Of a stretch of 45,300 nt of DNA, positions 6,961-29,663 are shown piece by piece. A program made the translations under genes and the position numbers. Within the stretch, counting starts at the first letter, position 1. Each line of letters opens with the position of its first letter. Below the pieces are notes generated by a model. The model saw only the letters and a program-made list of their open reading frames with translations, was not told where the DNA came from and ran no database searches. The DNA is from an uncultured Chloroflexota bacterium (GTDB taxonomy: Bacteria > Chloroflexota > Dehalococcoidia > Dehalococcoidales > RBG-16-60-22): positions 1 to 45,300 of the forward strand of contig CAIWTG010000221.1 in NCBI GenBank assembly GCA_903915565.1. The letters run 5' to 3'.

Positions 6961-7884
6961 ATGCTAAAAAAAATAGCGGTGATAATATGTACCTTGACGC
7001 TGGCAGCGATTTTACTATCCTCCTGCCTCCCGGCCCCGCATACTCCATTAACAGGCTTTAAGCCGGGAGATTATAACGAGTCGCTGGACTCCGGAAACCG
7101 GACGCGTACTTACACTGTCCATATTCCACTCACTTACAATACCGATCAGGCAATGCCTTTGGTCGTCGTTCTGCATGGGTCGGGCGGCTCCGCTGATAAT
7201 ATCGCCGAGACAACCGACATGAGCGATAAAGCCGACGCAGCCGGCTTCATCGTTGTTTACCCCAACGGCACAGGTTTGCTCAATGATACGCTTTATTTGA
7301 CATGGAACTGCGGTTTCTGCTGCGGCTATGCATCGGATAACAACATTGATGACGTGGGTTTTATGCGGTCGCTCATTGGAAAGCTGGAAGGGGAACTGAA
7401 TATAGATAAGGCGCGTATCTTTATTACCGGTTTTTCCAATGGCGCCATGTTGGCCTACCGGCTTGGCTGCGAGCTATCGGATATCGTCGCCGCCATTGCG
7501 CCGGTGTCCGGCTCGATGGGCGATTGGGAAACGGCTTCATCAAGCCCGGTGTCGGTTATCATCTTCCACGGTACGGCTGATGCCATCGTGCCATATGAGG
7601 GAGGTACATCAGACGAGCTTGCTACGGAGGGAAGGATAGATAAACCCGTGTCTTACGCCGTAAATTTCTGGGTGACTCATAACGGCTGCTCGACGGCATA
7701 TACCCGGGACGTAAACGGTGATATTGTAAGGGATAGTTATAGCGGCGGACGGGGCGGCTCGGAGGTAGTTCTTTATACCATCGTCGACGGTCAACACGCC
7801 TGGCCGGGCGACAACCCAGCCTACCGAGTAATATCCGCTACCGACCTTATCTGGGAATTCTTTGCCGCCCACCCCAAACTGTAG
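6961..7884 (+). CDS. Secreted lipoprotein esterase of the PHB-depolymerase / feruloyl-esterase (LpqC-like) family
   Basis: 307 aa. Signal peptide with lipobox LLSSC. VVVLHGSGGSA and the nucleophile elbow GFSNGAMLAYRL. Confidence 0.75.
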   Translation: MLKKIAVIICTLTLAAILLSSCLPAPHTPLTGFKPGDYNESLDSGNRTRTYTVHIPLTYNTDQAMPLVVVLHGSGGSADNIAETTDMSDKADAAGFIVVYPNGTGLLNDTLYLTWNCGFCCGYASDNNIDDVGFMRSLIGKLEGELNIDKARIFITGFSNGAMLAYRLGCELSDIVAAIAPVSGSMGDWETASSSPVSVIIFHGTADAIVPYEGGTSDELATEGRIDKPVSYAVNFWVTHNGCSTAYTRDVNGDIVRDSYSGGRGGSEVVLYTIVDGQHAWPGDNPAYRVISATDLIWEFFAAHPKL

Positions 7885-7898
7885 AAGGTCAGCAACAC

Positions 7899-8234
7899 AT
7901 GAAATCTGCAAAGCCCAAGGAAACAACCGCCATAGAGTGCCGGCGTTGCGGCGTCTGCTGCACCAGGCACCAGGCCTTCGTTACGCCAGAGGATGCCGAC
8001 AGAATAATCGCCTACGTGGGTATGACGCCGGCCGAGTGGGACGAAAAGTATGACGACCCGCGCTGGAAGTACTCGGAATGGCGTCTGATACGCCACATAA
8101 ACGGCGCCTGTGCCTTTCTAACGTTTAACGAGGGGTTAGCGACCTGCCGGATACACGCCGTCAAGCCTGCGTGCTGTGCCAAGTGGCAGGCCGGACTAGA
8201 CAAGACGGAGTGTAAAGAGGGGATGTTAACGTAA
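7899..8234 (+). CDS. YkgJ-family cysteine-cluster (Zn/Fe-binding) protein
   Basis: 111 aa with CRRCGVCC (CxxCxxCC) and further conserved Cys residues. Confidence 0.7.
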   Translation: MKSAKPKETTAIECRRCGVCCTRHQAFVTPEDADRIIAYVGMTPAEWDEKYDDPRWKYSEWRLIRHINGACAFLTFNEGLATCRIHAVKPACCAKWQAGLDKTECKEGMLT

Positions 8235-13860: not shown

Positions 13861-14325
13861 ATGCCAAAACAAAAATACGCTAAAAACATCCTCACGGAAG
13901 ACCGCATGCCGCCGCCACCCGAGCGCGATGTGAAGAGCATGGCAAAACAGGCCAAGGCGGGGCGGACGTTAGACCGGACGATGCTGCTGGGGATACAGGA
14001 CTCCATCGTTAAGGGAGCATTCTTTGCAGGGTGCGAGTGGCTGTGGCAGCTGACGGGTAACGGGCCGGTGGCAATTGAGACGCCGCACACGCACGACTTT
14101 GATGAAATCATCGGGTTTGCCGGCTCCAATCGGAATCACCCGCGGGAACTGGGCGGGGAAATCGAGTTCTGGATGGACGACGAGCCTTATACCCTCACCA
14201 AGACCTGCTTTATCTTCATCCCCCGGGGCGTCAAGCACTGCCCCGTCGTCCTTAAAAGAATCGACACGCCCATTTTCATGTTCGAGTCCGGCAACAATAC
14301 CGCTTACGAAAAGCTTAAAAAATAG
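13861..14325 (+). CDS. Cupin-fold protein, paralog 1 of 3
   Basis: 154 aa. Cupin motif 1 HTHDFDEIIGFAG and motif 2 IPRGVKHCP. The N-terminus MPKQKY resembles paralog 2. Confidence 0.7.
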   Translation: MPKQKYAKNILTEDRMPPPPERDVKSMAKQAKAGRTLDRTMLLGIQDSIVKGAFFAGCEWLWQLTGNGPVAIETPHTHDFDEIIGFAGSNRNHPRELGGEIEFWMDDEPYTLTKTCFIFIPRGVKHCPVVLKRIDTPIFMFESGNNTAYEKLKK

Positions 14326-14335
14326 GAGCCTGAAT

Positions 14336-14809
14336 ATGCCGAAGAAGGATTATAACAAGTATTTTGTCAGTAAGCCCGCCTACGAGGTCATCCCGGAGGG
14401 TGAAGTTAAGGGACGCCGTCCGGCGATGACCCTGATGTCTAATAACCTGGTGCCGAAAACCAATATGTACATCGAAACCGGCTGGGTGTTCGGCATGCCC
14501 GACCCCAACCCGCATATCTTTGAGCACACGCACGATTATGACGAAATCGTTATCCACATGGGCACCGACCCCGATAACCAGGAGGAGCTGGGCGGAGAAA
14601 TCGAGTTCATGGTGGGCGGCCAGCCGCTGAAAATCAATAAGACCTCGGCGGTGTATGTGCCCAAGGGCGTGCCGCACGGTCCGCTGACCTGGAAGAAATA
14701 TAACAAGCCCCACCTGGAGCTGACGATTATGATAGGCGCCGGTTCTTTGGCCCAGGCCGACCCGGGCGGGCACGAAAAAAGCCGCAAGAATAAAAAGGAG
14801 GAGAAATAA
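14336..14809 (+). CDS. Cupin-fold protein, paralog 2 of 3
   Basis: The track ORF 14075..14809 overlaps paralog 1 in another frame. The ATG at 14336 (MPKKDYNKYF) follows a TAGGAG SD. Motifs HTHDYDEIVIHMG and VPKGVPHGP. Confidence 0.7.
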   Translation: MPKKDYNKYFVSKPAYEVIPEGEVKGRRPAMTLMSNNLVPKTNMYIETGWVFGMPDPNPHIFEHTHDYDEIVIHMGTDPDNQEELGGEIEFMVGGQPLKINKTSAVYVPKGVPHGPLTWKKYNKPHLELTIMIGAGSLAQADPGGHEKSRKNKKEEK

Positions 14810-15255
14810 TGGATAAGATAGACAGGAAATTCTTTGTCACCGAGCTTAATGACGTGGTGGGGGACGCTCCGTGGTCGCCGGTGTTTGCGGACAATGAAGG
14901 GCAGCGCGTTCTTTCCCTCGACGGGGACGTCATCAAGGGGGCTTTCTATATGGAAACGGCGTGGTTCCTGCCGGGCGATTGGCCGAAGAAAACCGGCTCG
15001 CTGAAGGACCGCACCATCGGGGAGCACGTCCACGACTTTGACGAGGTTCTCGCCTGGATAGGGTCGAACCCTAAAGACAAGTACAATCTCAACGGGGAAG
15101 TCGAGCTCTGGATAGACGGCAAACAAAACATCCTGACGAAGAGCTTTTTGGCGTTTATCCCGGCGGGCACCAAGCACGGCCCGATTAACATTAGAAAGAT
15201 AAAGAAGCCGATGTTCCACTTTACCGCCGGCATGGGGAAGAAGTATAGTAAGTAG
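14809..15255 (+). CDS. Cupin-fold protein, paralog 3 of 3
   Basis: 148 aa. The start overlaps the upstream stop (TAATG). Motifs HVHDFDEVLAWIG and IPAGTKHGP. Confidence 0.7.
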   Translation: MDKIDRKFFVTELNDVVGDAPWSPVFADNEGQRVLSLDGDVIKGAFYMETAWFLPGDWPKKTGSLKDRTIGEHVHDFDEVLAWIGSNPKDKYNLNGEVELWIDGKQNILTKSFLAFIPAGTKHGPINIRKIKKPMFHFTAGMGKKYSK

Positions 15256-15282: not shown

Positions 15283-16743
15283 ATGTCTGTTGCCAAACTT
15301 AAGTTAGCCGCTTTATTTGCCCTGCTTCTCTTCATAGCGGCAATTGCTATCCCCACCCCCGCTTTTGCCGACGGCGGGCCGATTGTCCCTGCCGACCTCT
15401 GGGATAACCTTAAAGAGGGGCACCAAATAGCCGTGGTTTCTTTAATAAGTCAGGACGAGGCGGTGGTCGACCTTTTCATTTCTATCCAGGACAAAACAAC
15501 GGAGTCCCACGAAGTCATCTTTTTCGTGCCTATAGGTAAAGACGCAACCTTCCACAGCGCTTATGAGCAGAACCTGTCCGACTTCAATGAATTCAATACC
15601 GCGGGGCTGGACCAGATAATCCGAGCCAGTGTAACCACCCGGCAGCATGCCGTCCAGGCGCTTTTCGCCGGGGCGTTACTGACTAACGGTGCGATATTAT
15701 CCCCACTCTGGGCCACGGTGCTGCTTACCGGATGCAGCTCTGGTGCCCAACAGCCGGAGGCCTCTTTCCAGACTGAAAGCTCCGAGATTAATATATTTGG
15801 TATTGATGATAACACGGATTTGAATGCGCTTATCGAGACTACCGGGCTGGCTCCCTCCGTTTATGATACGCTGTCCACACTCAAAGGGCAGCGGGTAGCC
15901 GTCGTCAAGCTGCATACCCAGCCTAAAGTACCTGAATCTGAAAACCCGGTATTCCAAAGCACTCCCACCTCCGAACCCGGGCTGCACCTCAACTGGACCA
16001 CTCCTCTCGTGGATAGTGCGTATACTTATCCCCTGGGAACCGGCGCCGCCTGGTCCAAACCTATCGATCTGACGCGGGTTTATATCAGCGTGCCTAAGGG
16101 CGTCGACTTTGATGTCCAATACCCCGCCCTCGGGACGGAGTATTCCGGCTACGACTATATCAAAGGTCCGAATATCCAAAACTACATCAATACCCCCGCT
16201 TACGCCATTGACGAGGCCAGCGGTGACTTCGGGCGGGTCTGGCGGGCGACATATACGATGAGCAATCCCACCGATAACATCGTCATTACGGTTAAACCGC
16301 AGTCGGCGTTAAGCCAATTCCTCGCCAGCGCCAAGGAGGGTGCGGTAACTTACTCCGTGCTCTTCGCCCTGATTATCGGGGTGTTAATATGGGTTCTCGC
16401 CTGGAAATACCTGATGCCCATTTTCCTCGGCATTAAAGAGAAGCATCCCATGTTAGCCTGGTATTATGCGTTGATTTATCCCGGTTGTAACTTAATCTTT
16501 ATCATCTTCCCGGGAATGGTGTTTTATTTGTTCTTCCTGTTTAATGCGACCCTCATATCATTTATTCTGCTTTTCGTGGTGCTGGGAGGGGCGATAATCG
16601 GTATATTTTCTTTGGCACACGGCGGCCGTCTGGGCGTCAGCCGGGGCAAAGCGATAGGCGCTTTTGTGCTAACTAGTCTTTGCAGCAACGCGGTTTACCT
16701 GCTACTGGCGGCTGGCTTTGCCTGGTTCGTGGGCGCTATCTAG
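15283..16743 (+). CDS. Secreted, membrane-anchored protein of unknown function
   Basis: 486 aa. N-terminal signal peptide (...PTPAFA/DGG), a soluble region of about 330 aa, then about 4-5 C-terminal TM helices. It is the last gene of the plus-strand operon. Confidence 0.65.
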   Translation: MSVAKLKLAALFALLLFIAAIAIPTPAFADGGPIVPADLWDNLKEGHQIAVVSLISQDEAVVDLFISIQDKTTESHEVIFFVPIGKDATFHSAYEQNLSDFNEFNTAGLDQIIRASVTTRQHAVQALFAGALLTNGAILSPLWATVLLTGCSSGAQQPEASFQTESSEINIFGIDDNTDLNALIETTGLAPSVYDTLSTLKGQRVAVVKLHTQPKVPESENPVFQSTPTSEPGLHLNWTTPLVDSAYTYPLGTGAAWSKPIDLTRVYISVPKGVDFDVQYPALGTEYSGYDYIKGPNIQNYINTPAYAIDEASGDFGRVWRATYTMSNPTDNIVITVKPQSALSQFLASAKEGAVTYSVLFALIIGVLIWVLAWKYLMPIFLGIKEKHPMLAWYYALIYPGCNLIFIIFPGMVFYLFFLFNATLISFILLFVVLGGAIIGIFSLAHGGRLGVSRGKAIGAFVLTSLCSNAVYLLLAAGFAWFVGAI

Positions 16744-16795: not shown

Positions 16796-18298
16796 CTAGT
16801 AATTGGGGGTGCTGTTCCCGCTAACACCCGGAGGATTACCACCAGGGAAATATCCGGGGTTATAGTTACCGCTGCCACCGGGTGGGTTTCCGCCGGGATA
16901 ATACCCGGGAGTATTATTGCCGCTAGCGCCGGGAGGTCTAACGCCGTTACCGCCAGGCAAATTGTAACCTCCATCAGACGGCATATCACCACCCCTCCCG
17001 TCAAACCCTCCCCTCCCCGCTCCTCCACCGGTAAGCCAACTGGGTAAGAAATTAAGGTTCAAGACCGACTGCATGTAAAGTAGTGAACCAAACCCTACCA
17101 GAACTGTCGTAATCGGTATCCATATCTTCATCGGTAATCGTGAAAGCACCAGAGCGCTAATTACCGCGACGGGGAATAACCCGGGCAGATAAAAGCGACT
17201 GAAAGTTACCCAGGCGCCGGCACCCTGGAAATCCGCCGTCCATTCGTAAGTCAGATACAAACCAAAGACAAAGACAAACCAACCAATCAGTATCCACAGA
17301 ATATTCCATGGTATCTCCGTGTGCAGACTCGACCACCTTCCCATCGCCTCCCCTCGCTTTTTAATAGCCCTGAATTTGAAGTAAAGGATAGAGATGAAGG
17401 CCGGTATCCCTACCGCCAGGAGAGGGAAAGCCAGCATTAACGCCCGGGGTGCGTTTTGCAGGTTGCCCCAGATTATTTCCCAGGGGACAGATTGCCCGCT
17501 CTGGTTAATCTGCCCGAGGTATTGGAAGGCGAACTTTATCCCGAACTTGGTATAGTGATAGCCATAGTCCAACGCCGAGCCAAAAACAAAATAGTCATAA
17601 AGCAACAAAGCCGCCACCGCCAAACCTATGCCCATAACCACCGGGATTATTTCCCGCCGAATCCTCGCCCGGTCTTTCTTATACCACTGGATAATGCGGG
17701 TAATGATAAAATGCAAAGCAATAACAAAAGCAATGGGGAAGTTGGTATAACGCGAGACAACCGACCACCCAGTTAAGAAGAAAGCCAGGAAAAGTATTAC
17801 ACCGCCCTTTACCTTGCCGAATTTCTCTTTTCCCAGATGGTAGTACATATAAAGGCCGCCGCCCATCACCAGGAAAGCCAGCGACGCATAGGTATCCATG
17901 TAGGCGCGGTTAAGCATCACCAGGCTAAGCGGCGTTAACAGCATCAACAAAGAGCCTATCATCGCCGCCTTTTCGTCTCTCATACGCTTTAGCAGGATAT
18001 AAGTCACAATAATCATACCCAGTGCCAGCAAGACATTGCCCCACCGCGGTATACCCGCTAATTCGAAAGGAATCAGATAAAGGACATAACCCGGCGCTTT
18101 TTCCAGCGCCCAGATATTATCGCCGATGTTGACGTATTGTATCAGTTGCCCGCCTTGCTGCTGGGCTTCACTCACCTGCTGTGAATGAGTGGCACTATCT
18201 ACCGTAAATTGCTCTTGAGCAAAGTTTTGTACTCCATAATAATACGCCCAATCGTCCGGGTCGGCCATATTGACGGGAACCGCCAGCGCTAAAACCAT
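16796..18298 (-). CDS. GT-C-fold membrane glycosyltransferase-like protein (ArnT/PMT family 39-like) with a G/P/N/Y-rich C-terminal tail
   Basis: 500 aa with about 11-12 TM segments. There is an acidic DPDDWAYYY loop near the N-terminus, as in the first-loop Asp motif of GT-C enzymes. The tail is GGNGVRPPGASGNNTPGYYPGGNPPGGSGNYNPGYFPGGNPPGVSGNSTPNY. The 5' end is uncertain (see findings). Confidence 0.55.
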   Translation of the reverse strand: MVLALAVPVNMADPDDWAYYYGVQNFAQEQFTVDSATHSQQVSEAQQQGGQLIQYVNIGDNIWALEKAPGYVLYLIPFELAGIPRWGNVLLALGMIIVTYILLKRMRDEKAAMIGSLLMLLTPLSLVMLNRAYMDTYASLAFLVMGGGLYMYYHLGKEKFGKVKGGVILFLAFFLTGWSVVSRYTNFPIAFVIALHFIITRIIQWYKKDRARIRREIIPVVMGIGLAVAALLLYDYFVFGSALDYGYHYTKFGIKFAFQYLGQINQSGQSVPWEIIWGNLQNAPRALMLAFPLLAVGIPAFISILYFKFRAIKKRGEAMGRWSSLHTEIPWNILWILIGWFVFVFGLYLTYEWTADFQGAGAWVTFSRFYLPGLFPVAVISALVLSRLPMKIWIPITTVLVGFGSLLYMQSVLNLNFLPSWLTGGGAGRGGFDGRGGDMPSDGGYNLPGGNGVRPPGASGNNTPGYYPGGNPPGGSGNYNPGYFPGGNPPGVSGNSTPNY

Positions 18299-20440: not shown

Positions 20441-20515
<75 letters not shown>

Positions 20516-20531
20516 ATGAGACGCAATTTAA

Positions 20532-20560
20532 AGTATATCTTTTGGTATAAGAGAAGTCAA
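20532..20560 (-). promoter_or_regulatory. Candidate promoter of the initiator tRNA
   Basis: On the minus strand: TTGACT (20560-20555), 17-nt spacer, TATACT (20537-20532), 16 nt before the mature tRNA 5' end. Confidence 0.5.
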
Positions 20561-20597
20561 GCTAAGGGGTGGGACTTAATTGCCCCACCCCTTAGCT
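20560..20597 (-). terminator. Strong hairpin downstream of the methyltransferase operon
   Basis: Perfect 14-bp stem AGCTAAGGGGTGGG (20560-20573) / CCCACCCCTTAGCT (20584-20597) with a 10-nt loop, 22 nt after the MT2 stop. The U-tract on the minus strand is only moderate. Confidence 0.5.
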
Positions 20598-20619: not shown

Positions 20620-21483
20620 CTATTTGTTTGGCTGAATGGCTGCGGCGGCCCGCTTGCGGTGGTCTTCCAGGTAGCGCCGGGCGAACCTATCGCGCCCCAG
20701 AACCAGGTCGGCGGAAAGGACGGCGGGCATGACCTTGGCGGCGTCGGCAATCAGGGCGGTACCGCCGGCGTCAATGACCATCGCTATCCAGGCGTTATTC
20801 AATATCGGCCGGTCCGGCATACCGAAGGAGATGTTGCTGGCGCCCATCGTCATGTTCAGCCCAATCTCGATGCGTATCTGGCGCAAGGCAGCCAGAACGT
20901 CCATGGCGGCTTTTGGCTCGGCGCCGATGGCATAGGCCATCACGTCGATAATGATGTTCTCCTTGGGAACGCCCATTTTGGCGCAAGCCTCAACGATTTT
21001 GTAAGTGATAGCCACGCGGCGTTCGGTGGTCTTGGGAATGCCGTCATCGTCCTGGGCGAGGCCGATAACCGCGGCGCCGTACTCTTTAATTAACGGCAGG
21101 ACGCGCTCCAGCTTGGCTTTTTCGCCGCTGATTGAATTAACCAGCGGTTTGCCCTTGTAAACCTTCAGTCCGGCTTCCAGGGCGGCGGAATTGGGACTGT
21201 CAATGCAGAGCGGTACATCAACCGCGTCCTGGATGACTTTAATCGCCTCGGGGAGGAGTTTTACATCATCCACGCCGGGGGCGTTAACGTTGCAGTCCAG
21301 GATGGTGGCGCCGGCGGCAACCTGCTCCAGGGCTTCTTTCTTGACGATGGAAAGGTCACCGTTCTTAAGCGCTTCCGCCAGCTTTTTCTTGCCGGTGGGG
21401 TTAATGCGCTCGCCGATAATTGTTGTCGGCCGGTCATAAGAGATGATGACTTCTTTAGAGATACCTGATACTTTTGTGTCCAT
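20620..21483 (-). CDS. Pterin-binding methyltetrahydrofolate:corrinoid methyltransferase (MeTr/AcsE/MT2-like)
   Basis: 287 aa. Motifs IGERINPTG, LDCNVN, LCIDS, VNSISG and GASNISFGMPDRPILNNA, typical of the pterin-binding TIM barrel. Confidence 0.85.
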   Translation of the reverse strand: MDTKVSGISKEVIISYDRPTTIIGERINPTGKKKLAEALKNGDLSIVKKEALEQVAAGATILDCNVNAPGVDDVKLLPEAIKVIQDAVDVPLCIDSPNSAALEAGLKVYKGKPLVNSISGEKAKLERVLPLIKEYGAAVIGLAQDDDGIPKTTERRVAITYKIVEACAKMGVPKENIIIDVMAYAIGAEPKAAMDVLAALRQIRIEIGLNMTMGASNISFGMPDRPILNNAWIAMVIDAGGTALIADAAKVMPAVLSADLVLGRDRFARRYLEDHRKRAAAAIQPNK

Positions 21484-21587
21484 AATTTATTACTCCTGTT
21501 TTTATTTATAGGCTAAATACACACTCTATTATGCCCTAAATGCAAAATTCCTGCATCCGCTAAAATACTGAATGAGTTTACGGTTCA

Positions 21588-21626
21588 CAGCTATCAGTTT
21601 TGGGGAGGGGGGAGTACTGATAACTG
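21588..21626 (-). other. Intercistronic hairpin between MT1 paralog 5 and MT2
   Basis: CAGCTATCAGT (21588-21598) pairs with ACTGATAACTG (21616-21626). 11 bp with one mismatch and a G-rich (plus-strand) loop. Confidence 0.4.
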
Positions 21627-21649
21627 TTTACTGTATACTGAAAACTCAA

Positions 21650-22990
21650 CTAATACTTCCCGTACTCTTTGGTGGCATCCATCATAGCGTGGAGGTTTTC
21701 TACCTTGCCCTGGTCCATGCTGGCAGCTGCAGTAAGGATGTAGCCGCCGCCGGGGGCGCAGTCCTCGATAAGCTTGCGGCAGCCTTCTTTAACGTCCTTG
21801 ACAGTGCCGGTAACCATGATGGAAATAGGCAGGTTGCCCATAATGCAGTTCTTCTGACCGACCGTCTGCTTGGCGTGCGCCATATCCATGTACTCAAAGT
21901 ACCAGACGATTGAGCCTTTGGGCATGTCCTGGATAATTTTCAGGCGGGGGATATAATTGCCCTCGGCAAAGGGCATCGGCACCAGTCCTTCGTTGATAAT
22001 GCCCAACAATAGCCGTTTAAAAGTGGGCCAGTAAAACTCGTCGAACTGCTTGGGGGACATGAAGCCTTTTTCGCCCTTGTGCAGGGGCATCATCAACACC
22101 GGCGATATTGAGTTATCGGCGGATTTCACCGCTTCTTCAATCATAATGGGCAGCAGTCTCTCCATGGCTTCATGCATTTTTCCAGGCTGGCGGAAGATAT
22201 CCATGAAAATCCCCTGCGTGCCGCGGCAAAAATCCGTCAGCATGTCGAAGGGGGCGCCGGAAAAGCCGCTGCCGTTAAAGGGCGGGTAGCCTTCCGACAT
22301 CGCGATGGTGCTGACCTCGCGGGCGGTTTTCATCCATTTATTCATTTCGTCGGCGGCCGCCCAGATTGTTTTGAACATTTCCCGCATCTCCGGCGTGGAA
22401 AGGGCTGGGACGGTGCCGATGGGCAGGCCAATCATCGGGTTAAGGTGCATAAAAGTCGCCAGGGGTTTAAATGCTTCCGCCTGGCGGGGCATAAAGACCC
22501 GCAACCAGAAATCGGTGGGGTCCTGGATTAAATGGTCGTATTCGTCTTTTTTCATGTACTCGCCTTCGACGAACTGGTAAGAAGGCACGTCTTTAGCCAG
22601 CCCGTGGCCGGGCCACTTGTGCATTTTGTGTCCCAGGATTTCCAGCGCTTTGGCCGGCAGAACTAAACCGGGCCCGCCGAAGCAGTCCATGTCGCCGAAG
22701 TCATACATGAATTTCAGCCAGGCTTTTTTCTGCTTTTCGTAATCGTACATGACGGTGTGCAGGTCGTAGCCGGCGTAATAAGCCGGGAACCAGCCCACCG
22801 GCAGGTTGCAGGGCACGCGGTCGCCCTCTTCCAGGCTGATGGCTTTAACAAAGCGGGTTACCCGGGCTTTATAGAGCTGTTCGGCTTCTTTGTTCTTGAA
22901 TTTGACGCCGGGTGCATCTAGCCAGCGCTTAAAGCGGGCCTGCCTTTTCTGGTCCGGAGTCAATTCTTTCCAGTTAGCAATACCTTCCAT
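21650..22990 (-). CDS. URO-D-fold corrinoid-dependent methyltransferase, substrate-side MT1 candidate, paralog 5 of 5
   Basis: 446 aa. Shares with the four upstream paralogs the motifs DRVP, WPGHGL, APFD..LRGT.G...D.FRQP, PLHKG..FMS, FYWPTF, CI.GN and CAPGGGYIL. The fold call is more certain than the function. Confidence 0.75.
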   Translation of the reverse strand: MEGIANWKELTPDQKRQARFKRWLDAPGVKFKNKEAEQLYKARVTRFVKAISLEEGDRVPCNLPVGWFPAYYAGYDLHTVMYDYEKQKKAWLKFMYDFGDMDCFGGPGLVLPAKALEILGHKMHKWPGHGLAKDVPSYQFVEGEYMKKDEYDHLIQDPTDFWLRVFMPRQAEAFKPLATFMHLNPMIGLPIGTVPALSTPEMREMFKTIWAAADEMNKWMKTAREVSTIAMSEGYPPFNGSGFSGAPFDMLTDFCRGTQGIFMDIFRQPGKMHEAMERLLPIMIEEAVKSADNSISPVLMMPLHKGEKGFMSPKQFDEFYWPTFKRLLLGIINEGLVPMPFAEGNYIPRLKIIQDMPKGSIVWYFEYMDMAHAKQTVGQKNCIMGNLPISIMVTGTVKDVKEGCRKLIEDCAPGGGYILTAAASMDQGKVENLHAMMDATKEYGKY

Positions 22991-23006
22991 TTTGAGCCTC
23001 CGCTAA

Positions 23007-24341
23007 CTAATATTTCCCGTACTCATTAGCCGCCTCCATCATGGCGCGCAGGTTTTCCGGCTTGGCCATATCAAAAGTGGCGCCGCCGGTGAGAATATAG
23101 CCGCCGCCGGGGGCGCAGGTCTCGATGAGTTTACGGCAAAATTCCTTCATCTCCGCCGCCGTCTTGGTGTAGGCGATGGAAACCGGCACATTGCCGGCGA
23201 TGCAGCTTACCCTGCCGACGGTTTTCTTGGCGTTAGCCATATTCGTCTGGTCGAACATCCAGGCGATAGCGCTCTTGGGCATATCGGAAATATATTCCAA
23301 CCGCCGGTTATAAGCGCCCTCCGCCACCGGGTAAGGCACCAGGCCGTCTTCCACCATCGCCAAAAGTTGGCGGCGGAAGGTAGGCCAGTAAAATACCTCA
23401 AACTGTTTATCGGACATAAAGGTGTCGTCGCCCTTATGCAGGGGCATCATTACCACTGGGCAGTCCGCCATATCGCACATGGCAATAGCGCCGGAGATGA
23501 GCTGGGGCAGCACGAATTCCATCGCCTGGTGGATTTTATCCGGCTGGCGGAACATGTCCATGACAATGCCCTGCGTGCCGCGCAGGTTGTCGGCAAAAAC
23601 GTCGAAAGGAGCCACCGCCAGGCCGCCCCGGAAAACGGGGAAGCCCCGTGCCCGGGCGCCATTGGTGGTTTCCGCAGCGGCTTTATTCCAGGGCTCGGTG
23701 TACTTGCTAGCTTCTTTAATCGCTTTAAATAATTTCTGGAACCTGGGGTCCTGGCACATCGCCATCAAACGGTTGGGCAGACCCTGGTAAGAAGCAAAAG
23801 ATGGCACGTCTTTAAACGGCTCGAAGACGCCCATGGTGCGCGGCAAAAGGTAGCGCAGCTGGAAATCAAAGGGGTCTTTCATAAAAAGGTCGTATTCATC
23901 GGCTTTCATGTAAACGCCCTCGACGTACTGGTAGGAATGGGCGTCGTCCGGCAGGCCGTGGCCGGGCCAGCGCATCGTTTTGGCTTCCATGGCATCGTTA
24001 ACCGACGCGTTAAAGAAAAGCGTTCCGTCAAAGGTATCCGAATCAAAATCATCGACGAAGTTGAGCCAGACCTTCTTCATCAGCGCCGGGTCGTACATGA
24101 CTTTTTTAAGGGGGACTTTGGCGTACATGGCGGGGTACCAGCCGGTGGGGAGCATACAGGGAACGCGGTCGGGAAGTTCCATCTTCACCGCTTTGGCCAG
24201 CCGGGTGGCGCGGGCTTCATAACCCTGCTCCGCCTCTTTGCTGACGAATTTAACGTCCTCGGCTTTTATCCAGTGGTTCAGGCGCAGTTCGCGTTTCTGC
24301 TGCCAGGTAAGGCTTGCCCAGTTATCCGGTCGTACGAACAT
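23007..24341 (-). CDS. URO-D-fold corrinoid-dependent methyltransferase, MT1 candidate, paralog 4 of 5
   Basis: 444 aa with the same motif set. A 16-nt spacer carrying GGAGGC separates it from paralog 5. Confidence 0.75.
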   Translation of the reverse strand: MFVRPDNWASLTWQQKRELRLNHWIKAEDVKFVSKEAEQGYEARATRLAKAVKMELPDRVPCMLPTGWYPAMYAKVPLKKVMYDPALMKKVWLNFVDDFDSDTFDGTLFFNASVNDAMEAKTMRWPGHGLPDDAHSYQYVEGVYMKADEYDLFMKDPFDFQLRYLLPRTMGVFEPFKDVPSFASYQGLPNRLMAMCQDPRFQKLFKAIKEASKYTEPWNKAAAETTNGARARGFPVFRGGLAVAPFDVFADNLRGTQGIVMDMFRQPDKIHQAMEFVLPQLISGAIAMCDMADCPVVMMPLHKGDDTFMSDKQFEVFYWPTFRRQLLAMVEDGLVPYPVAEGAYNRRLEYISDMPKSAIAWMFDQTNMANAKKTVGRVSCIAGNVPVSIAYTKTAAEMKEFCRKLIETCAPGGGYILTGGATFDMAKPENLRAMMEAANEYGKY

Positions 24342-24379
24342 TTTGGTTATGCCTCCGTAACTAATTCCTTAAGTGTTTC

Positions 24380-24475
24380 GTCATTGCGAGGAGCGAAGCG
24401 ACGCGGCAATCCCAATCTACGTTTACTCCAATGCTTGAGATTGCCACGCCCTACTGCGGAAGGGCTCGCAATGAC
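24380..24475. repeat. REP/MITE-like palindromic element in the paralog 3 / paralog 4 spacer
   Basis: The terminal inverted repeats GTCATTGCGAG (24380-24390) and CTCGCAATGAC (24465-24475) are exact complements. The inner arms GGCAATC / GATTGCC also pair. Confidence 0.6.
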
Positions 24476-24481
24476 ACCTCG

Positions 24482-25828
24482 TTATTTTTTATAAACGCCG
24501 AACTCTTTAGCGGCGTTCATCATTGCCTTGAAGTTTTCTATTTTGCCGTTGTCGCAGCTGGCGCCGCCGGCGAGGATATAGCCGCCGCCCGGGGCGCAAT
24601 CCTGGATAAGTTTTTTGCAGTTTTCGGTTACCTGCTGGTCGTTGCCGGTAATCATGACGGAGGTAGGCACATTACCCACGATACAGCTTATACCGCCGAG
24701 GACGCGTTTGGCTTCTTTCATATCCGTCTGGTCGAACCACCAGATAACGCCGCTGGGCGGAGTATCCGTAATCTGCTTCAACCGGCGAGTATATTTACCT
24801 TCGGCAAAAGGCATGGGAACGAGGCCTTCATTAATCATCGCCAGCAGCATCCGGCGGTAGGTAGGCCAGTAAAATTCCGCGAATGCCTTATCGGACATGA
24901 ACACATCATCGCCCTTATGCAGGGGCATAATGCAGACTGGGCTATCGGTCATGGGGAAGTTTTTAATGGTAGATTCAATGGACAGGTTAAGGTACCATTC
25001 CATCGCCTCTTGCAGTTTTTTGGGCTGGCGGAACATATCCCTGACAATGCCCGTAGTGCCGCGTAAAGCATCGGCAAAATGGTCGAACGGAGCGCCCGCC
25101 ATCATGCCAAAGCCCCCGAGCGGGGGATAGCCATGCGCCCTGATGTAATCTCGGATTTCTACCTGGGCGGCCATGTACTTGTTCTGCTCATCTACTTTGG
25201 ATTGCAGCTTGTTAACAATGCCGGCTATTTCCGGGTTAGCCAGCATATTAATAAACATCGACGAGCCAAGCATGCCGCGCATCGGCGGCAGATTTTTGAA
25301 GGGAGCAAAGAAATCCGATGTGCGGGGCATCATGACACGGAGGTTGTAATCGGTCGGGTCCCGCATATACAGGTCATACTCGTCGTCCTTCATATATTCG
25401 CCTTCAACGAACTCGTTCATCCTGGCGGTTACCGGGAGTCCCAGGCCGGGGAGTTTCTGCTGTTTGCTGGGAAAGGCTTCCGCGATGCGGCCGGACGGTA
25501 TGAACGCCGGTCCGCTAAAGGTATCCATATCCCCGAAGGCAGCCATGAACTTCTTCCAGATTTCGTTGCCTTTTTTGTAGTTGTACATCAGCTCGTGGAA
25601 GGAAGAGCCGCCCCAGGTAGCCGGGTAGTTGCCTAGGGGTAGCATGACCGGCACGCGGTCGGGCTCCTCCAGCTTGATGGCTTTAATGAACCGGGTGACG
25701 CGTTTTTTATAAAGCTCTTCCGCCTCATTGTTAACGAACTTAACGTTCGGGGGATTGAGCCACCGGTCAAAGCGCGCTTCCCGCTTTTCCTGCCAGGTCA
25801 TATCTTTCCATTCTTTAGTTTGCGCCAT
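24482..25828 (-). CDS. URO-D-fold corrinoid-dependent methyltransferase, MT1 candidate, paralog 3 of 5
   Basis: 448 aa with the same motif set (EPDRVPV, PLHKGDDVFMS, SCIVGNVP, CAPGGGYIL). Confidence 0.75.
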   Translation of the reverse strand: MAQTKEWKDMTWQEKREARFDRWLNPPNVKFVNNEAEELYKKRVTRFIKAIKLEEPDRVPVMLPLGNYPATWGGSSFHELMYNYKKGNEIWKKFMAAFGDMDTFSGPAFIPSGRIAEAFPSKQQKLPGLGLPVTARMNEFVEGEYMKDDEYDLYMRDPTDYNLRVMMPRTSDFFAPFKNLPPMRGMLGSSMFINMLANPEIAGIVNKLQSKVDEQNKYMAAQVEIRDYIRAHGYPPLGGFGMMAGAPFDHFADALRGTTGIVRDMFRQPKKLQEAMEWYLNLSIESTIKNFPMTDSPVCIMPLHKGDDVFMSDKAFAEFYWPTYRRMLLAMINEGLVPMPFAEGKYTRRLKQITDTPPSGVIWWFDQTDMKEAKRVLGGISCIVGNVPTSVMITGNDQQVTENCKKLIQDCAPGGGYILAGGASCDNGKIENFKAMMNAAKEFGVYKK

Positions 25829-25890
25829 GATTGATTACCCTCCTTTTGTTATTCCAAGGTCGGGTGTTGGGGTGACATTATCAATTTCAT

Positions 25891-25908
25891 TAGCCAAATG
25901 CTTGGCTA
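25891..25908 (-). other. Small hairpin directly after the paralog 2 stop
   Basis: TAGCCAA (25891-25897) / TTGGCTA (25902-25908) with a 4-nt loop. Confidence 0.35.
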
Positions 25909-25911
25909 TAT

Positions 25912-27237
25912 TTAGTATTTACCGTATTCCAGGCCGGCTTCAACAACGGCGTGCAGGTTGGCGGGGTTACATTTATCAATACCGGAACCCAGCGCCAGAA
26001 TGTAGCCGCCACCCGGGGCGCAGGTCTCGATGAGTTTGCGTGAGTATTCTTTAATCTGCTGGGGGGTCTGGGTGTAAAGCATGGCGGCGGTAACGTTGCC
26101 GGCAATGCAGGCCGAGTTGCCCAGTATTTTTTTGGCCAGGGCCATATCTGTTTTCTCCATCGTCCAGATGACGCAGGATTTCGGCAATTCGCTTATAATC
26201 TTCAGGCGCGCTTCGTTATAAGAGCCGTCGATAATCATCATTGGCACACAGCCCTCGTTAACCACGCCCATGATTAGCTTGCGGAAGGTGGGCCAGTAAA
26301 ACTTTTCAAACTGCGGGACGGACATAAAGCTATCGGCACCCTTATGCATGGGGACAAAGACAATGGGGCTGGTAGCCATATTGACCATGCCTACCGTGGA
26401 CTTAATACTGTTATCAGCAATAATTTCTAAAGACTCAAGGAGCTTTTGCGGCTGGCGGAACATGTCTTTAACCACGCCCGAGGTGCCGCGGAGCATATCT
26501 GCCACTGTATCGAAAGGCGCCAGCATCACGCCGCCCATCAATGGCGGGAAGCCGCGCTTTAATGACTCCTGCGCGCACTCCATCATCACCTTCTGGTGCT
26601 TGACGTTTTCATCGCTGGCTTCCATGATGGTTTTAAAAAGCTTTTTGAAATTGGGGTCCTGGCACATCATCATCAGTCGTTCGGGGAGGCCGGAATACGA
26701 GGAAAAGGAAGGAACGCCGGTGAAAGGCTCAAAGGCGCCCCAGGTGCGTGGGGTAAACTTCCGCAGACTGAAGTTGAAGGGGTCTTTCATCAAAAGGTCG
26801 TATTCATCTGCCTGCATATATTCTTTTTCCACAAAGTTAGGCAGCGTGGAGGTCTTGGGGAGGCCATGGCCGGGCCAGGCGTTGACTTTGTAATCTAAAA
26901 TTTCATAGACCCTGGCGGCAAAAAATCCGGGTGCATCGGCGGAGTCCTGCTCAAATTCTTCCAGGAACTTTATCCAGGAAGGTTTAATTTTGGAATAATC
27001 ATAGAGGACATCATACAGGGTGTAACCATTGTTGTAAGCGACGAAAGAGTTGGCGGCGAGGTGCATGGGGACGCGGTCCGGAATTTCCATCTTGATGGCT
27101 TTAATCATCCGCGTCAGACGCTCTTTATAAAGCTTTTCCATCGCGGGGTTGGGGAGTTTAGCGGGGGGATTGAGCCATTTCTTGAATCTTTCTTCGCGCC
27201 GTTCCTGCCAGGTCATTTCCGACCATTGTTTTTCCAT
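25912..27237 (-). CDS. URO-D-fold corrinoid-dependent methyltransferase, MT1 candidate, paralog 2 of 5
   Basis: 441 aa with the same motif set (IPDRVPM, PMHKGADSFMS, ACIAGNVT, CAPGGGYIL). Confidence 0.75.
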   Translation of the reverse strand: MEKQWSEMTWQERREERFKKWLNPPAKLPNPAMEKLYKERLTRMIKAIKMEIPDRVPMHLAANSFVAYNNGYTLYDVLYDYSKIKPSWIKFLEEFEQDSADAPGFFAARVYEILDYKVNAWPGHGLPKTSTLPNFVEKEYMQADEYDLLMKDPFNFSLRKFTPRTWGAFEPFTGVPSFSSYSGLPERLMMMCQDPNFKKLFKTIMEASDENVKHQKVMMECAQESLKRGFPPLMGGVMLAPFDTVADMLRGTSGVVKDMFRQPQKLLESLEIIADNSIKSTVGMVNMATSPIVFVPMHKGADSFMSVPQFEKFYWPTFRKLIMGVVNEGCVPMMIIDGSYNEARLKIISELPKSCVIWTMEKTDMALAKKILGNSACIAGNVTAAMLYTQTPQQIKEYSRKLIETCAPGGGYILALGSGIDKCNPANLHAVVEAGLEYGKY

Positions 27238-27269
27238 CCTGAACCTCCAAAAAAGCTATTTCTAACCGA

Positions 27270-27311
27270 CAGGCATTTCCTCACCACCATGGAATGGCGC
27301 GGAAATGCCTG
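27270..27311 (-). other. Intercistronic hairpin between MT1 paralogs 1 and 2
   Basis: Perfect 11-bp stem CAGGCATTTCC (27270-27280) / GGAAATGCCTG (27301-27311) with a 20-nt loop. No U-tract is adjacent on the minus strand. Confidence 0.45.
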
Positions 27312-27349
27312 ATGCCGGTTAAAACGCTTATATTATTTTATCTAAAGCT

Positions 27350-28684
27350 TTATTTGTAAACGCCGTACTCTTTAGCCGCCGCCATCATGGCGCGCAGGTT
27401 TTCTGGATTGCCCTCATCAACGTTGGCGCCGCCGGCCAGGACGTAGCCGCCGTCTTTACCGCAAACCTCGATGAGTTTTTTGCAGTGTTCTTTAACCTGC
27501 TGCGGTGTGCCCGTCATAATGAGCGATGTGGGCACGTTGCCGACGATACAGCACCTGTCGCCGATTTTCTTCTTAGCCTCAAAGATATCCGTCTGGTCGA
27601 AGTACCAGGCGACCGAACCTTTGGGGAAATCGCCGATGATGTCCAGGCGCTTGTTATAGCTGCCCTCGGCGAACAGCATGGGATAGATGCCTTCATTAAC
27701 CATCGCCATGACCACCTTTTTAAAGGTCGGCCAGTAGAAGGTTTCGTATTGCTTAGGGGACATGAAGCTGTCGGCGCCTTTATGGAGCGGCATGATAACA
27801 ATCGGCGATGCGGCATTAGCCACGGCCGCTACCGCGCCCTCGATGATGATGGGCACTAATCTTTCCATCGCTTCGTGGACTTTTTGCGGGCGCTGGAACA
27901 TATCCATCATCACGCCCTGCGTGCCGCGCAGCGTGTCGCCCAGGGTATCGAACGGAGCTTTGGCCAATCCGCTCATCACCCCGGGGAAGCCCATCGCCAG
28001 CGATTCGCCGGCTACTTCGCCGACCGCCGCTATCCACTTCAGGCTCTCGGTGCCGGCTTTCATGATGGCGTTAAAGCCTGCCTGCACCTCCGGATTCCCG
28101 AAGGGTATAAACGGCGTCGTCGCAATTTCTTCAAAGCTGGTCCAGGGGTTCAAGGTGTTGAAAGCTTTAAACACCCCGAAAATCCTGGGAAGATAAATGC
28201 GCAGCCAGAAATCAGACGGGTCGCGGATAAGGGCGTCGTACTCATTGGGCTTCATCCACTCGCCCTCTACTGCCTGGTAAGAAGGCGTCGTCTTGGGAAG
28301 CCCGTGTCCCGGCCATTTATAAAGCTTATAGTCTACTGCCTCCAGAGACCGTCCGGGGGGAACGAGGGCGGGGGGCATATAAGTATCCGCATCGCTGAAG
28401 TCATGCATCATCTTCCGCCAGGCGGACTTCATCTTGTCATAGTCGTACATGACCTCGCCCAGATTAGTGCCGGCATAAGACGCGGCATAAAACCCGGTGG
28501 GCAGGATGCAGGGTACCCGGTCAGGCTTTTGTAGCGTAAAAGCCTTAATGAATCTGGTTACTCTCTCTTTATAGACTTTCTCTGCCTGTGGGCTGGCAAA
28601 TTTGACACCTGGCGGAGAAAGCCATCGTTTGAAGCGTTCTTCCCGTTTTTCTTCTGGAGATAACTCCGCCCATGGTTTAGCCAT
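27350..28684 (-). CDS. URO-D-fold corrinoid-dependent methyltransferase, MT1 candidate, paralog 1 of 5
   Basis: The track starts at the GTG at 28696. The ATG at 28684 (MAKPWAELSPEEKREERFKRWL) aligns best with the other four N-termini and lies 1 nt after the corrinoid-protein stop. This is the most divergent copy (CGKDGGYVL instead of CAPGGGYIL). Confidence 0.75.
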   Translation of the reverse strand: MAKPWAELSPEEKREERFKRWLSPPGVKFASPQAEKVYKERVTRFIKAFTLQKPDRVPCILPTGFYAASYAGTNLGEVMYDYDKMKSAWRKMMHDFSDADTYMPPALVPPGRSLEAVDYKLYKWPGHGLPKTTPSYQAVEGEWMKPNEYDALIRDPSDFWLRIYLPRIFGVFKAFNTLNPWTSFEEIATTPFIPFGNPEVQAGFNAIMKAGTESLKWIAAVGEVAGESLAMGFPGVMSGLAKAPFDTLGDTLRGTQGVMMDMFQRPQKVHEAMERLVPIIIEGAVAAVANAASPIVIMPLHKGADSFMSPKQYETFYWPTFKKVVMAMVNEGIYPMLFAEGSYNKRLDIIGDFPKGSVAWYFDQTDIFEAKKKIGDRCCIVGNVPTSLIMTGTPQQVKEHCKKLIEVCGKDGGYVLAGGANVDEGNPENLRAMMAAAKEYGVYK

Positions 28685-28685
28685 A

Positions 28686-29321
28686 TTACTTAACACCGTA
28701 CCACTGTTTGGTCAGCGTCACTGCGGCCATGGCGTCCTTGCCGAAGGCATCGGCTTTGGCATACTTGCGGACCTCATCGTCCATCTGGCCGCCGCCAATC
28801 ATGATTTTAAGGTTCTTGCGCAGTCCGGCTTTCTCCAGCGCTTCGACGGTTTCTTTCATGGCATCGAAGGCAGGGGTAAGGAAACCGCTTAAGCCCAGCA
28901 CCGGCGCCCCGGTTTCCTTCACAGCTTTGACGATCTTTTCAATGGGTACGTCGACGCCGAGGTTGGTGACCTCAAAGCCGTTAACATCAAGCATGAAATC
29001 TACGATGTTGAGGCCGATATCATGGATATCGCCGGCGACTGTAGCGATGACGACCTTGCCGATTTTCTTTTGCTGTACGCCCGCACCGGTTAGGTGGGGT
29101 TTTACAATATTGGTGACCTGCGCGAGCAGCTCGCCGGAAAAGACGAGCTCGGGGAGGAAATATTCGCCGCCGGCAAAGCGCTTACCGACGATTTCCATAC
29201 CCTTACGGGCATCTTCAAGGATTTTGAGAGGGTCCTCTTTGGAATCAAGCCGCTGTTGGGTCAGCTTGAGTACCTCTTCTTCCTTAAGATCCGCTAACAA
29301 GTTCACAAAATCTCCGGACAT
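28686..29321 (-). CDS. Cobalamin-binding corrinoid protein (B12-binding cap + Rossmann domain)
   Basis: DxHxxG signature in VAGDIHDIGLNIV and an N-terminal helical cap domain. I prefer the ATG at 29321 (MSGDFVNLL), 8 nt after the AAGGAGG SD, over the TTG at 29369. Confidence 0.9.
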   Translation of the reverse strand: MSGDFVNLLADLKEEEVLKLTQQRLDSKEDPLKILEDARKGMEIVGKRFAGGEYFLPELVFSGELLAQVTNIVKPHLTGAGVQQKKIGKVVIATVAGDIHDIGLNIVDFMLDVNGFEVTNLGVDVPIEKIVKAVKETGAPVLGLSGFLTPAFDAMKETVEALEKAGLRKNLKIMIGGGQMDDEVRKYAKADAFGKDAMAAVTLTKQWYGVK

Positions 29322-29408
29322 ACCTTCATCCTCCTTAGTATTTTTTTGGTATCCCTGAAATTGAAACAATCCGACCGGTTATTTTCCGAATTCAAATCGT
29401 TCATGGCG

Positions 29409-29437
29409 AGTATAACAATGCGCTCAAAAAAAGTCAA
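29409..29437 (-). promoter_or_regulatory. Candidate promoter of the corrinoid methyltransferase operon
   Basis: On the minus strand: TTGACT (29437-29432), 17-nt spacer, TATACT (29414-29409). This leaves a leader of about 80 nt. Confidence 0.45.
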
Positions 29438-29544
29438 ATGTTACACTTAGTATACTATTTATTTTATATACCTCCTGGTGTACGGCTCAATCGGCTGTAT
29501 CAACTATTTTTTTTGAGTATTTGTACCTATTTAATAAAGGAATC

Positions 29545-29588: not shown

Positions 29589-29663
29589 GCGGGAGTAATT
29601 CAGTGGTAGAATGTTTGCTTCCCAAGCAAAAAGTCGCGGGTTCGAATCCCGTCTCCCGCTCCA
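29589..29663 (+). tRNA. tRNA-Gly (CCC), CCA encoded
   Basis: GCGGGAG-TA-ATTC-AGTGGTA-GAAT-G-TTTGC-TTCCCAA-GCAAA-AAGTC-GCGGG-TTCGAAT-CCCGT-CTCCCGC-T-CCA. Complete cloverleaf with anticodon CCC and discriminator U. Confidence 0.9.

Follow-up and report, generated by a model that had tools for sequence, protein, structure and literature searches.

A candidate corrinoid O-demethylation operon with five MtvB-like methyltransferases around a single carrier in an uncultured Dehalococcoidales bacterium

Three-component corrinoid methyl-transfer systems, built from a substrate-side methyltransferase (MT1), a corrinoid protein (CP) and a second methyltransferase (MT2), have been described from both archaea and bacteria. 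Here we analyse an operon of this kind in a 45,300-nucleotide stretch of DNA from an uncultured Dehalococcoidales bacterium (contig CAIWTG010000221.1 of assembly GCA_903915565.1, positions 1 to 45,300 of the forward strand; hereafter the window), which encodes one vitamin-B12 carrier, five putative methyl-removing enzymes and one predicted methyl-to-folate enzyme. In its gene logic the operon comes nearest to the archaeal mtoC-B1-B2-A-D locus, in its sequence to MtvB. The methoxydotrophy operon MtoCB1B2AD, known from Methermicoccus shengliensis and Archaeoglobus fulgidus (PMC8630106), shares with the window the succession of CP, tandem MT1 genes and MT2, the corresponding locus tags being RS03260 (CP), RS03255/50 (MT1) and RS03240 (MT2) (PMC8630106). 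It differs in having two MT1 genes against five in the window (and five to eight in arrays), in an MtrH-like MT2 that methylates tetrahydromethanopterin where the window has a Pterin_bind enzyme of the tetrahydrofolate (THF) type, in including the activase MtoD, for which the window has no counterpart, and in its archaeal hosts.

The bacterial systems resemble the operon in other respects. MtvB, from the MtvABC vanillate O-demethylase of Moorella thermoacetica, is the best match of all five window paralogs, and MtvA is 37 % identical to the window MT2; MtvB and the paralogs, which are likewise predicted to be zinc-independent, have in common three D/H/E positions and a C-terminal EYGxY motif, whereas the Mtv system has a single MT1, which lacks an N-terminal segment of ~33 residues found in the window proteins and falls into a different clade. 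The CdmBCA system of Acetobacterium dehalogenans (structure 9rui; PMC13222342) has a long-form MT1 and the same types of CP and MT2 partners as the window. Its MT1, CdmB, was reported in May 2026 from a chloromethane system and has a TIM-barrel fold without zinc, with extensions that form the dimer interface and hydrophobic substrate tunnels; MtvB is reported zinc-free as well (PMC13222342). CdmB, however, acts on haloalkanes and not on methoxylated aromatics (PMC13222342), carries S/W/Q where the window paralogs carry D/H/E, is only 23-26 % identical to them, and is encoded in the order MT1-CP-MT2 instead of CP-MT1-MT2. The OdmABD/VdmB systems of A. dehalogenans and Desulfitobacterium hafniense are three-component systems like that of the window, and D. 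hafniense provides both the nearest CP structure (4jgi) and a relative of the MT2 (4o0q); OdmB and VdmB are, in contrast to the long-form window paralogs, short-form, zinc-containing MT1 enzymes that branch outside the long-form group. Set against these systems, the operon appears to be an uncharacterised corrinoid O-demethylase-type system that stands out by the number of MT1 enzymes per carrier and by its host lineage. An incomplete search of the literature on Dehalococcoidia with O-demethylase, MtvB, MtoB, methoxydotrophy or the genome CP070842 found no account of these arrays.

Seven open reading frames (ORFs) succeed one another on the minus strand between 29437 and 20560 (ORF listing), with the following Pfam domains in gene order:

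28686..29321, minus strand: corrinoid protein (CP) of the MtvC/MtoC/CdmC type, 211 aa; B12-binding_2 and B12-binding
27350..28684 (alternative start 28696), minus strand: MT1 paralog 1, orthogroup A, 444 (448) aa; URO-D
25912..27237, minus strand: MT1 paralog 2, orthogroup D, 441 aa; URO-D
24482..25828, minus strand: MT1 paralog 3, orthogroup E, 448 aa; URO-D
23007..24341, minus strand: MT1 paralog 4, orthogroup C, 444 aa; URO-D
21650..22990, minus strand: MT1 paralog 5, orthogroup F, 446 aa; URO-D
20620..21483, minus strand: MT2, putative methylcobamide:tetrahydrofolate methyltransferase of the MtvA/CdmA/acetogen-MtaA type, 287 aa; Pterin_bind

An earlier note, made from the sequence alone, had proposed just this order; the lengths it gave for the paralogs (441-448 aa) are those found, and its by-eye estimate of 40-50 % identity among them compares with a computed pairwise identity of 44-53 %. 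For the CP, the most likely start codon is the ATG at 29321, which is preceded by an AGGAGG ribosome-binding site, and the ATG of paralog 1, the first URO-D gene and a 444-aa protein in public databases, lies 1 nt past the CP stop codon. On either side the operon is flanked by a tRNA gene, tRNA-Gly (29589-29663, plus strand) and tRNA-Met (20441-20515, minus strand).

To which branch of the URO-D proteins do the five paralogs belong? Against characterised reference sequences taken from Supplementary Data 3 of PMC13222342, MtvB is the top match for every paralog, with 28-37 % identity over ~410 residues at E-values of 5e-54 to 3e-76 (paralog 1: 37 %, 3e-76) and with MtvB residues 4-389 covered in the BLAST alignments. 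Archaeal MtoB comes second for all five (24-30 % identity) and CdmB third, and the short forms OdmB, VdmB, MecE and CmuA give only weak, C-terminal matches (E about 1e-5 to 1e-9 for OdmB and VdmB). A profile built from the five paralogs matches CdmB (9rui) among solved structures at E 6e-54 over nearly its full length (query positions 32-103, 114-172 and 222-445), N-terminal insertions as well as barrel; UroD reaches only E 0.012. The paralogs show the marks of long-form MT1 enzymes, namely a length of ~390-450 aa, insertions between the first strands of the barrel that have homologues in CdmB, and no HxC...C site. In a neighbour-joining tree they stand in a clade of their own beside MtvB, MtoB and CdmB and apart from OdmB, VdmB, MecE, CmuA and UroD, and the conserved N-terminal segment of ~33 residues that MtvB lacks is specific to this clade. 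By these comparisons the paralogs belong with MtvB, MtoB and CdmB in the group of long MT1 enzymes that work without zinc, within which they appear to form a separate, uncharacterised clade, matched at E <=1e-30 by ~800 clusters at 50 % identity. An AlphaFold2 model of paralog 1 (pLDDT 93.6) retrieved by Foldseek from a PDB library without 9rui only the barrels of UroD and of M. mazei MtaA (TMq 0.52-0.57), and the UroD match at TMq 0.55-0.57 fits extra elements beyond the barrel; as far as a model can, this confirms the fold, and it adds nothing on the subfamily.

Two other assignments within the superfamily were considered and rejected. As uroporphyrinogen decarboxylases (HemE), three of the five paralogs match TIGR01464 but reach only 21-32 bits (cut-off 303), and UroD takes the place of the outgroup in the tree. 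As coenzyme M (CoM) methyltransferases of the MtaA type, four of the five match TIGR01463 (MtaA/MtbA/CmuA) at 25-59 bits against a cut-off of 235, those with a match to NF040654 reach 27-53 bits (cut-off 400), and the HxC...C zinc motif is absent. The earlier note had named clustering with true uroporphyrinogen decarboxylases or with CoM-methylating MT2 enzymes among the outcomes that would tell against it, and the model scores and the missing zinc motif point away from both. The same data bear on the idea that methyl groups flow in the reverse direction, with MT2 charging the CP at the expense of methyl-THF and the URO-D proteins methylating five acceptors in a split methionine-synthase-like or biosynthetic system. 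In its favour, transfer from methyl-THF to Co(I) is the natural direction for enzymes of the MeTr type, URO-D enzymes of the MtaA type hand the methyl group of methyl-Co(III) on to an acceptor, and the best NCBIfam matches of the paralogs are, weakly, MtaA-type models. Yet with the MtaA, MtbA and CmuA models, whose cut-offs lie at 235-600, the scores are no more than 19-69 bits, a thiol-activating zinc site is lacking, and the nearest characterised relatives all work as MT1, so that we regard reverse flow as very improbable.

The partners of the paralogs resemble those of demethylation systems. In the CP, the sequence D-I-H-D-I-G corresponds to the DxHxxG motif of the His-on type, in keeping with the B12-binding protein that the earlier note had recognised; its closest solved structure, 4jgi (E 1e-43), is one that we take to be the corrinoid protein of a D. 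hafniense O-demethylase. The last gene, described in that note as a MeTr/AcsE-like methyl-THF:corrinoid methyltransferase, scores 288 bits against NF005719 (cut-off 259), has its best PDB matches in 2yci and 4o0q (Carboxydothermus hydrogenoformans MeTr and D. hafniense MT2, respectively), is ~37 % identical to acetogen MtaA, MtvA and CdmA of the THF type and 33 % identical to AcsE, and retains the motifs IGERIN, CIDS, NSI, IID and SNISFG, which align with conserved motifs of AcsE, MtvA and the other THF-type MT2 enzymes, all of which marks it as a predicted methylcobamide:THF methyltransferase. A role as the AcsE/MeTr of a carbon monoxide dehydrogenase/acetyl-CoA synthase (CODH/ACS) complex was rejected: the protein stays below the CODH/ACS-specific model NF040758 (141 bits, cut-off 370), and Pfam scans found no CODH/ACS genes in the window. 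Each element of the three-component logic has thus held as far as sequence evidence reaches, and we consider it very likely that the operon encodes a CP/MT1/MT2 methyl-transfer system.

What methyl donors could such a system use? In the family alignment, the window paralogs have FAE and GGA where MecE has the zinc motifs HMC and PGC (the motifs of CmuA fall outside the alignment blocks inspected or in gaps), and this replacement of the HxC...C motif fits the absence of zinc reported for MtvB and CdmB. An alternative zinc site formed by H301, C379 and C408 was considered and set aside, MtvB and CdmB being reported zinc-free (PMC13222342). The residues D250, H301 and E340 (E or D; paralog-1 numbering throughout) are retained in 259-260 of the 260 clade members, in MtvB and in all four MtoB sequences. 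CdmB carries S, W and Q at these positions, and the W and Q are shared, by eye, with 16 close CdmB homologues; this S/W/Q signature is a reading of the present alignments and not a published criterion, and the source paper contains no discussion of it (PMC13222342). The difference is a possible sequence signature parting halomethane enzymes from ether demethylases. A halide can depart without help, but when an aryl methyl ether is cleaved the phenolate leaving group has to be protonated. On this argument the window paralogs with their D/H/E set look like ether demethylases and not like halomethane enzymes.

This comparison bears on the possibility that the paralogs are CdmB-like dehalogenating methyltransferases that feed THF from haloalkanes (chloromethane, dichloromethane, iodomethane). 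CdmB is the sole solved structure in the long-form group and a clear homologue, natural chloromethane forms in peat and soil, and Dehalococcoidia are associated with organohalogens. If a CdmB-type enzyme is taken to combine S/W/Q with at least 40 % identity to CdmB, however, the window offers D, H and E/D, as in MtvB and MtoB, and 23-26 %, CdmB being only the third-best characterised match; the few natural halomethanes would also be hard to match with five to eight conserved specificities. Haloalkanes are on these grounds unlikely donors. Other donors, such as methyl thioethers (dimethyl sulfide (DMS), methylmercaptopropionate (MMPA), methanethiol), aliphatic or sugar methyl ethers (4-O-methyl-glucuronate) or N-methyl compounds, are given some room by the uncharacterised state of the clade and its identity to MtvB of at most 37 %, by the GH3 glycosidase and esterases of the window, which suggest substrates derived from plant polymers, and by the inclusion of thiol-linked methyltransferases such as MtsA in the UroD superfamily. 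The thioether and thiol methyltransferases of the superfamily nevertheless use the HxC...C zinc site that the paralogs lack, and the N-methyl and methanol MT1 enzymes known to us (MttB, MtbB, MtmB, MtaB) have other folds. All characterised long-form enzymes, moreover, act on aryl methyl ethers or halomethanes (PMC13222342), and such donors seem rather unlikely. Aryl methyl ethers are the substrates that we consider reasonably likely.

The closest database proteins come from metagenome-assembled genomes (MAGs) of Dehalococcoidales. A scan of species-representative genomes gave 544 or more related stretches; among the best 75 loci (numbered here with the prefix L), nearly all are from Dehalococcoidales/Dehalococcoidia MAGs, with a few from Desulfobacterota, Acidobacteriota and Syntrophus. 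The order CP-(MT1)n-MT2 recurs in dozens of independent MAG contigs, always with the CP first and MT2 last, which shows that the layout is not due to chance. The number of MT1 genes varies from 1 to at least 8 per array, the largest complete operons being 1:7:1, and a neighbour-joining tree of 260 clade members resolves them into orthogroups that are arranged as follows:

Window: A-D-E-C-F
L008: A-D-E-C-F
L001, L002 and L004 (closest relatives): A-D-E-C-F-H-G
L019: A-D-B-E-C-F-H-G

The order is collinear everywhere and presence or absence alone varies, which gives a pan-order A-D-B-E-C-F-H-G of at least eight orthogroups, with A always directly after the CP. Bootstrap values are at least 93 % for A, D, E, F, B, H and G, and only 40 % for C (reduced set). 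Each window paralog represents an orthogroup kept across 24-41 loci and is 65-92 % identical to its orthologues, as against 44-53 % to its operon neighbours. Compared with four relatives, all seven genes have dN/dS of 0.05-0.15 (0.05-0.09 for the CP) at dS of about 0.5-1.8 and are under strong purifying selection. Collinear orthogroups, low dN/dS and a conserved promoter indicate that the 1:5:1 arrangement represents one form of a variable array that selection maintains across the lineage. The spacer between F and MT2 in the window is homologous to the H-G spacer of the seven-gene arrays and to the H-MT2 spacer of L006, which suggests that genes are gained and lost as gene-plus-junction units.

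The orthogroups also differ where substrate would be expected to matter. Positions that are specific to orthogroups and conserved within them (241, 247-249, 305, 342, 344, 364 and 386) adjoin the invariant catalytic-type residues, at or just after the ends of barrel strands in the secondary structure of the model, and 247-249 lie inside the invariant motif APFDxxxD. The orthogroups diverge most from one another within two insertion regions, 101-120 and 181-240, whose counterpart extensions in CdmB build the tunnels (PMC13222342). Such a pattern is the one expected for different substrates handled on a common catalytic and CP-docking scaffold. Could the five paralogs instead be isoenzymes for a single substrate, kept for dosage or as condition-specific variants? 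Their catalytic-type residues are identical in all five, and of the two MtoB of M. shengliensis only MtoB2 is named among the strongly induced genes of strain AmaM (PMC8630106). Isoenzymes are at odds, however, with the age and fixed order of the orthogroups and their closer identity to orthologues than to neighbours, with purifying selection on every paralog, with the group-specific residues flanking the active-site motif, and with the gain and loss of particular orthogroups rather than of random copies, and we hold this explanation to be improbable. That the paralogs differ in substrate is, by contrast, probable, a view strengthened by the retention of old orthogroups across so many loci and by the orthogroup-specific residues beside the catalytic-type ones.

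Taken as a corrinoid-dependent, multi-substrate methyl-transfer operon with O-demethylation as its most likely function, a reading to which we give fair though not high confidence, the locus would work in the following way. Each of the five MtvB-like, zinc-independent MT1 enzymes (A, D, E, C and F) would bind its own methyl donor, most probably different methoxylated aromatics from lignin or peat, and present it to the Co(I) of the single His-on CP, yielding CH3-Co(III). The single pterin-binding MT2 would then pass the methyl group to tetrahydrofolate, and the methyl-THF would enter C1 metabolism through oxidation or Wood-Ljungdahl synthesis of acetyl-CoA. CP that becomes accidentally oxidised would be re-reduced by an ATP-dependent activase of the RACo type encoded elsewhere in the genome.

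Several points weigh against this reading. The clade is known from sequence alone; no characterised MT1 is more than 37 % identical to the window paralogs, the monophyly of the clade has 70 % bootstrap in a simple neighbour-joining tree, and the D/H/E argument comes from a multiple alignment and not from a ligand-bound structure. CdmB shows that the long-form group can switch to non-ether substrates. Pfam scans of the window found neither Wood-Ljungdahl genes nor an aromatic transporter, and the hairpins in the spacers, together with a promoter-like site inside the operon at 27360-27332, may mean that there is no single uniform transcript. Finally, as the earlier note had already remarked, the window contains no reductive activase of the RACo/RamA type by tblastn and Pfam scans.

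Activases are likewise absent within 10 kb of the arrays in close relatives. Related, more distant Dehalococcoidia operons (L060, L063, L065, L072, L078 and L079) do include RACo activases, recognised by Fer2 and the RACo linker, middle and C-terminal domains. In L060, L063, L065 and L072 the order is CP, an ORF of ~230 aa, RACo, MT1 genes of orthogroups I and J, and MT2, with two shorter ORFs in place of the ~230-aa ORF in L072, and similar RACo-containing layouts occur in L078 (a closed 2.3-Mb genome) and L079. An activase operon (L072) and an array lacking the activase (L064) occur together in one MAG, CAZCMK01, and RACo homologues are abundant in Dehalococcoidia. By analogy with these relatives, a RACo-type activase acting in trans in the window genome is plausible. 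The ORF of ~230-235 aa between CP and RACo (L060 7432-8124, L063 6042-6752, L078 9281-9988) has no Pfam match and may be an extra component of the system.

The noncoding parts of the operon contain a number of further elements:

29449..29456, minus strand: palindrome AGTATACT, candidate operator just upstream of the -35 box
29409..29437, minus strand: sigma-70-like promoter TTGACT-17-TATACT with extended -10 TG (10/12 matches plus TG)
29322..29408, minus strand: 5' leader of ~85 nt ending in AGGAGG, conserved in L001, L002, L006 and L008
27270..27311, minus strand: hairpin in the A-D spacer, an inverted repeat with arms CAGGCATTTCC...GGAAATGCCTG and a T-run some bases later
24380..24475, strand unassigned: nested palindrome in the E-C spacer, resembling repetitive extragenic palindromes (REP) or miniature inverted-repeat transposable elements (MITE), outer arms GTCATTGCGAG...CTCGCAATGAC
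20560-20573 and 20584-20597, minus strand: arms of the closing hairpin, 14 nt, 100 % complementary

Of the sites in the region, the single promoter-like element that had been proposed at 29409-29437 scores best, and four related genomes retain it, its -35 hexamer being invariant in 5/5 aligned relatives and its -10 hexamer in the 4/4 whose sequence reaches that far. The block AGTATACT is conserved in most of L001, L002, L006 and L008, in some with one substitution in the 8-mer, while its flanks diverge; together with the leader it may represent an operator and a regulatory leader. There is no regulator gene adjacent to the promoter, and an Rfam scan of the window returned two tRNAs only and no cobalamin or other riboswitch in the leader. 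The A-D spacer folds at -44 kcal/mol; its hairpin, a possible attenuator or processing site, has an arm motif that recurs at the same spacer position in L004, L008, L009, L014, L017 and L058. The 14-bp hairpin said to close the block is present with two perfect arms. It is followed by no T-run and was for this reason not called by the terminator scan, although a terminator would be its presumed role. The same scan found no intrinsic-terminator pattern between the operon genes on the coding strand. Co-transcription of the seven genes appears likely from this arrangement, and the spacer hairpins may tune the stability of individual segments. Beyond the operon, the tRNA-Met gene is preceded at 20560-20532 by the same hexamer pair TTGACT-17-TATACT as the operon promoter, and its -35 box overlaps the foot of the closing hairpin.

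The nested palindrome belongs to a family with outer arms GTCATTGCGAG/CTCGCAATGAC and inner arms GCGYGGCAATCTC/GAGATTGCCRCG, copies of which lie in L001 (14275-14394, 15771-15880, 17247-17364 and 18724-18734) and L020 (8131-8215). The family occupies several MT1-MT1 spacers of related arrays and is also found outside arrays, which gives it a REP/MITE-like appearance; an integron-like cassette array was considered and seems less likely, no integrase being nearby and the element occurring outside arrays as well. These palindromes may stabilise mRNA segments or supply homology for the gain and loss of cassettes.

The rest of the window encodes a short-chain dehydrogenase/reductase (SDR), 2-oxoacid:ferredoxin oxidoreductase subunits and two family-III CoA-transferases. 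There are also an esterase with a weak match to BD-FAE (feruloyl/acetyl-xylan esterase) at 6961-7884 and at least one further esterase, a GH3 glycosidase at 8226-10226 and a flavoenzyme of old yellow enzyme (OYE) plus Pyr_redox type at 11753-13846. OYE-type and aldehyde:ferredoxin oxidoreductase (AOR) genes recur near the related arrays L053, L067 and L078. The esterase, GH3 and OYE genes hint at phenylpropanoid processing, and the gene content of the window fits a plant-phenolic lifestyle without proving one. Flanking genes that recur across 77 loci, none of them constant, are SDRs, transporters of the MFS, MATE, ABC and TRAP types, OYE-type reductases, AOR and DUF169, a suggestive set that points to aromatic or aldehyde metabolism. 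The contig, with its anaerobic-type corrinoid system, also carries a heliorhodopsin gene (2940-3707; Pfam PF18761, E 1e-97). Two ORFs, at 15283-16743 (plus strand, 486 aa) and 16796-18298 (minus strand, 500 aa), have no Pfam match even at E 0.1, and two small, weakly cupin-like ORFs lie beside them (13861-14325 and 14809-15255).

The MAG projects from which the relatives derive (SPRUCE, a 'fen' isolate, MFD, PPR and RBG) presumably sampled peat, fen, soil, wetland and aquifer. Anoxic soils and sediments contain much C1 carbon in the methoxy groups of lignin and peat phenolics, and the anaerobic consumers of these groups so far are, to our knowledge, acetogens, Desulfitobacterium, a few archaea and Bathyarchaeia. 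Lignin amendment has been found to enrich specifically for uncultured Dehalococcoidia, represented by MAGs with a full Wood-Ljungdahl pathway (PMC10116835); that paper offers no mechanism for the response and does not mention methyltransferases (PMC10116835). We put forward, tentatively and as less probable than not, that Dehalococcoidales of peat, wetland and sediment possess a modular methoxy-harvesting locus, in which one CP and one THF methyltransferase are served by a variable collinear MT1 array and cassettes, each a gene with its spacer, come and go between palindromes of the REP-like kind, and that this locus is an unrecognised mechanism behind their lignin-stimulated growth.

If this were true, a lineage better known for organohalide respiration would be a major anaerobic methoxydotroph. 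A conserved operon with four to eight distinct MtvB-like enzymes per carrier offers a testable, clonable candidate for the basis of lignin-stimulated growth in Dehalococcoidia. Should the substrates prove different, the clade would still be a large uncharacterised branch of the family. In either case the arrays may serve as a natural panel of specificity variants, from which it could be learned how the zinc-free MT1 fold selects and activates its substrates.

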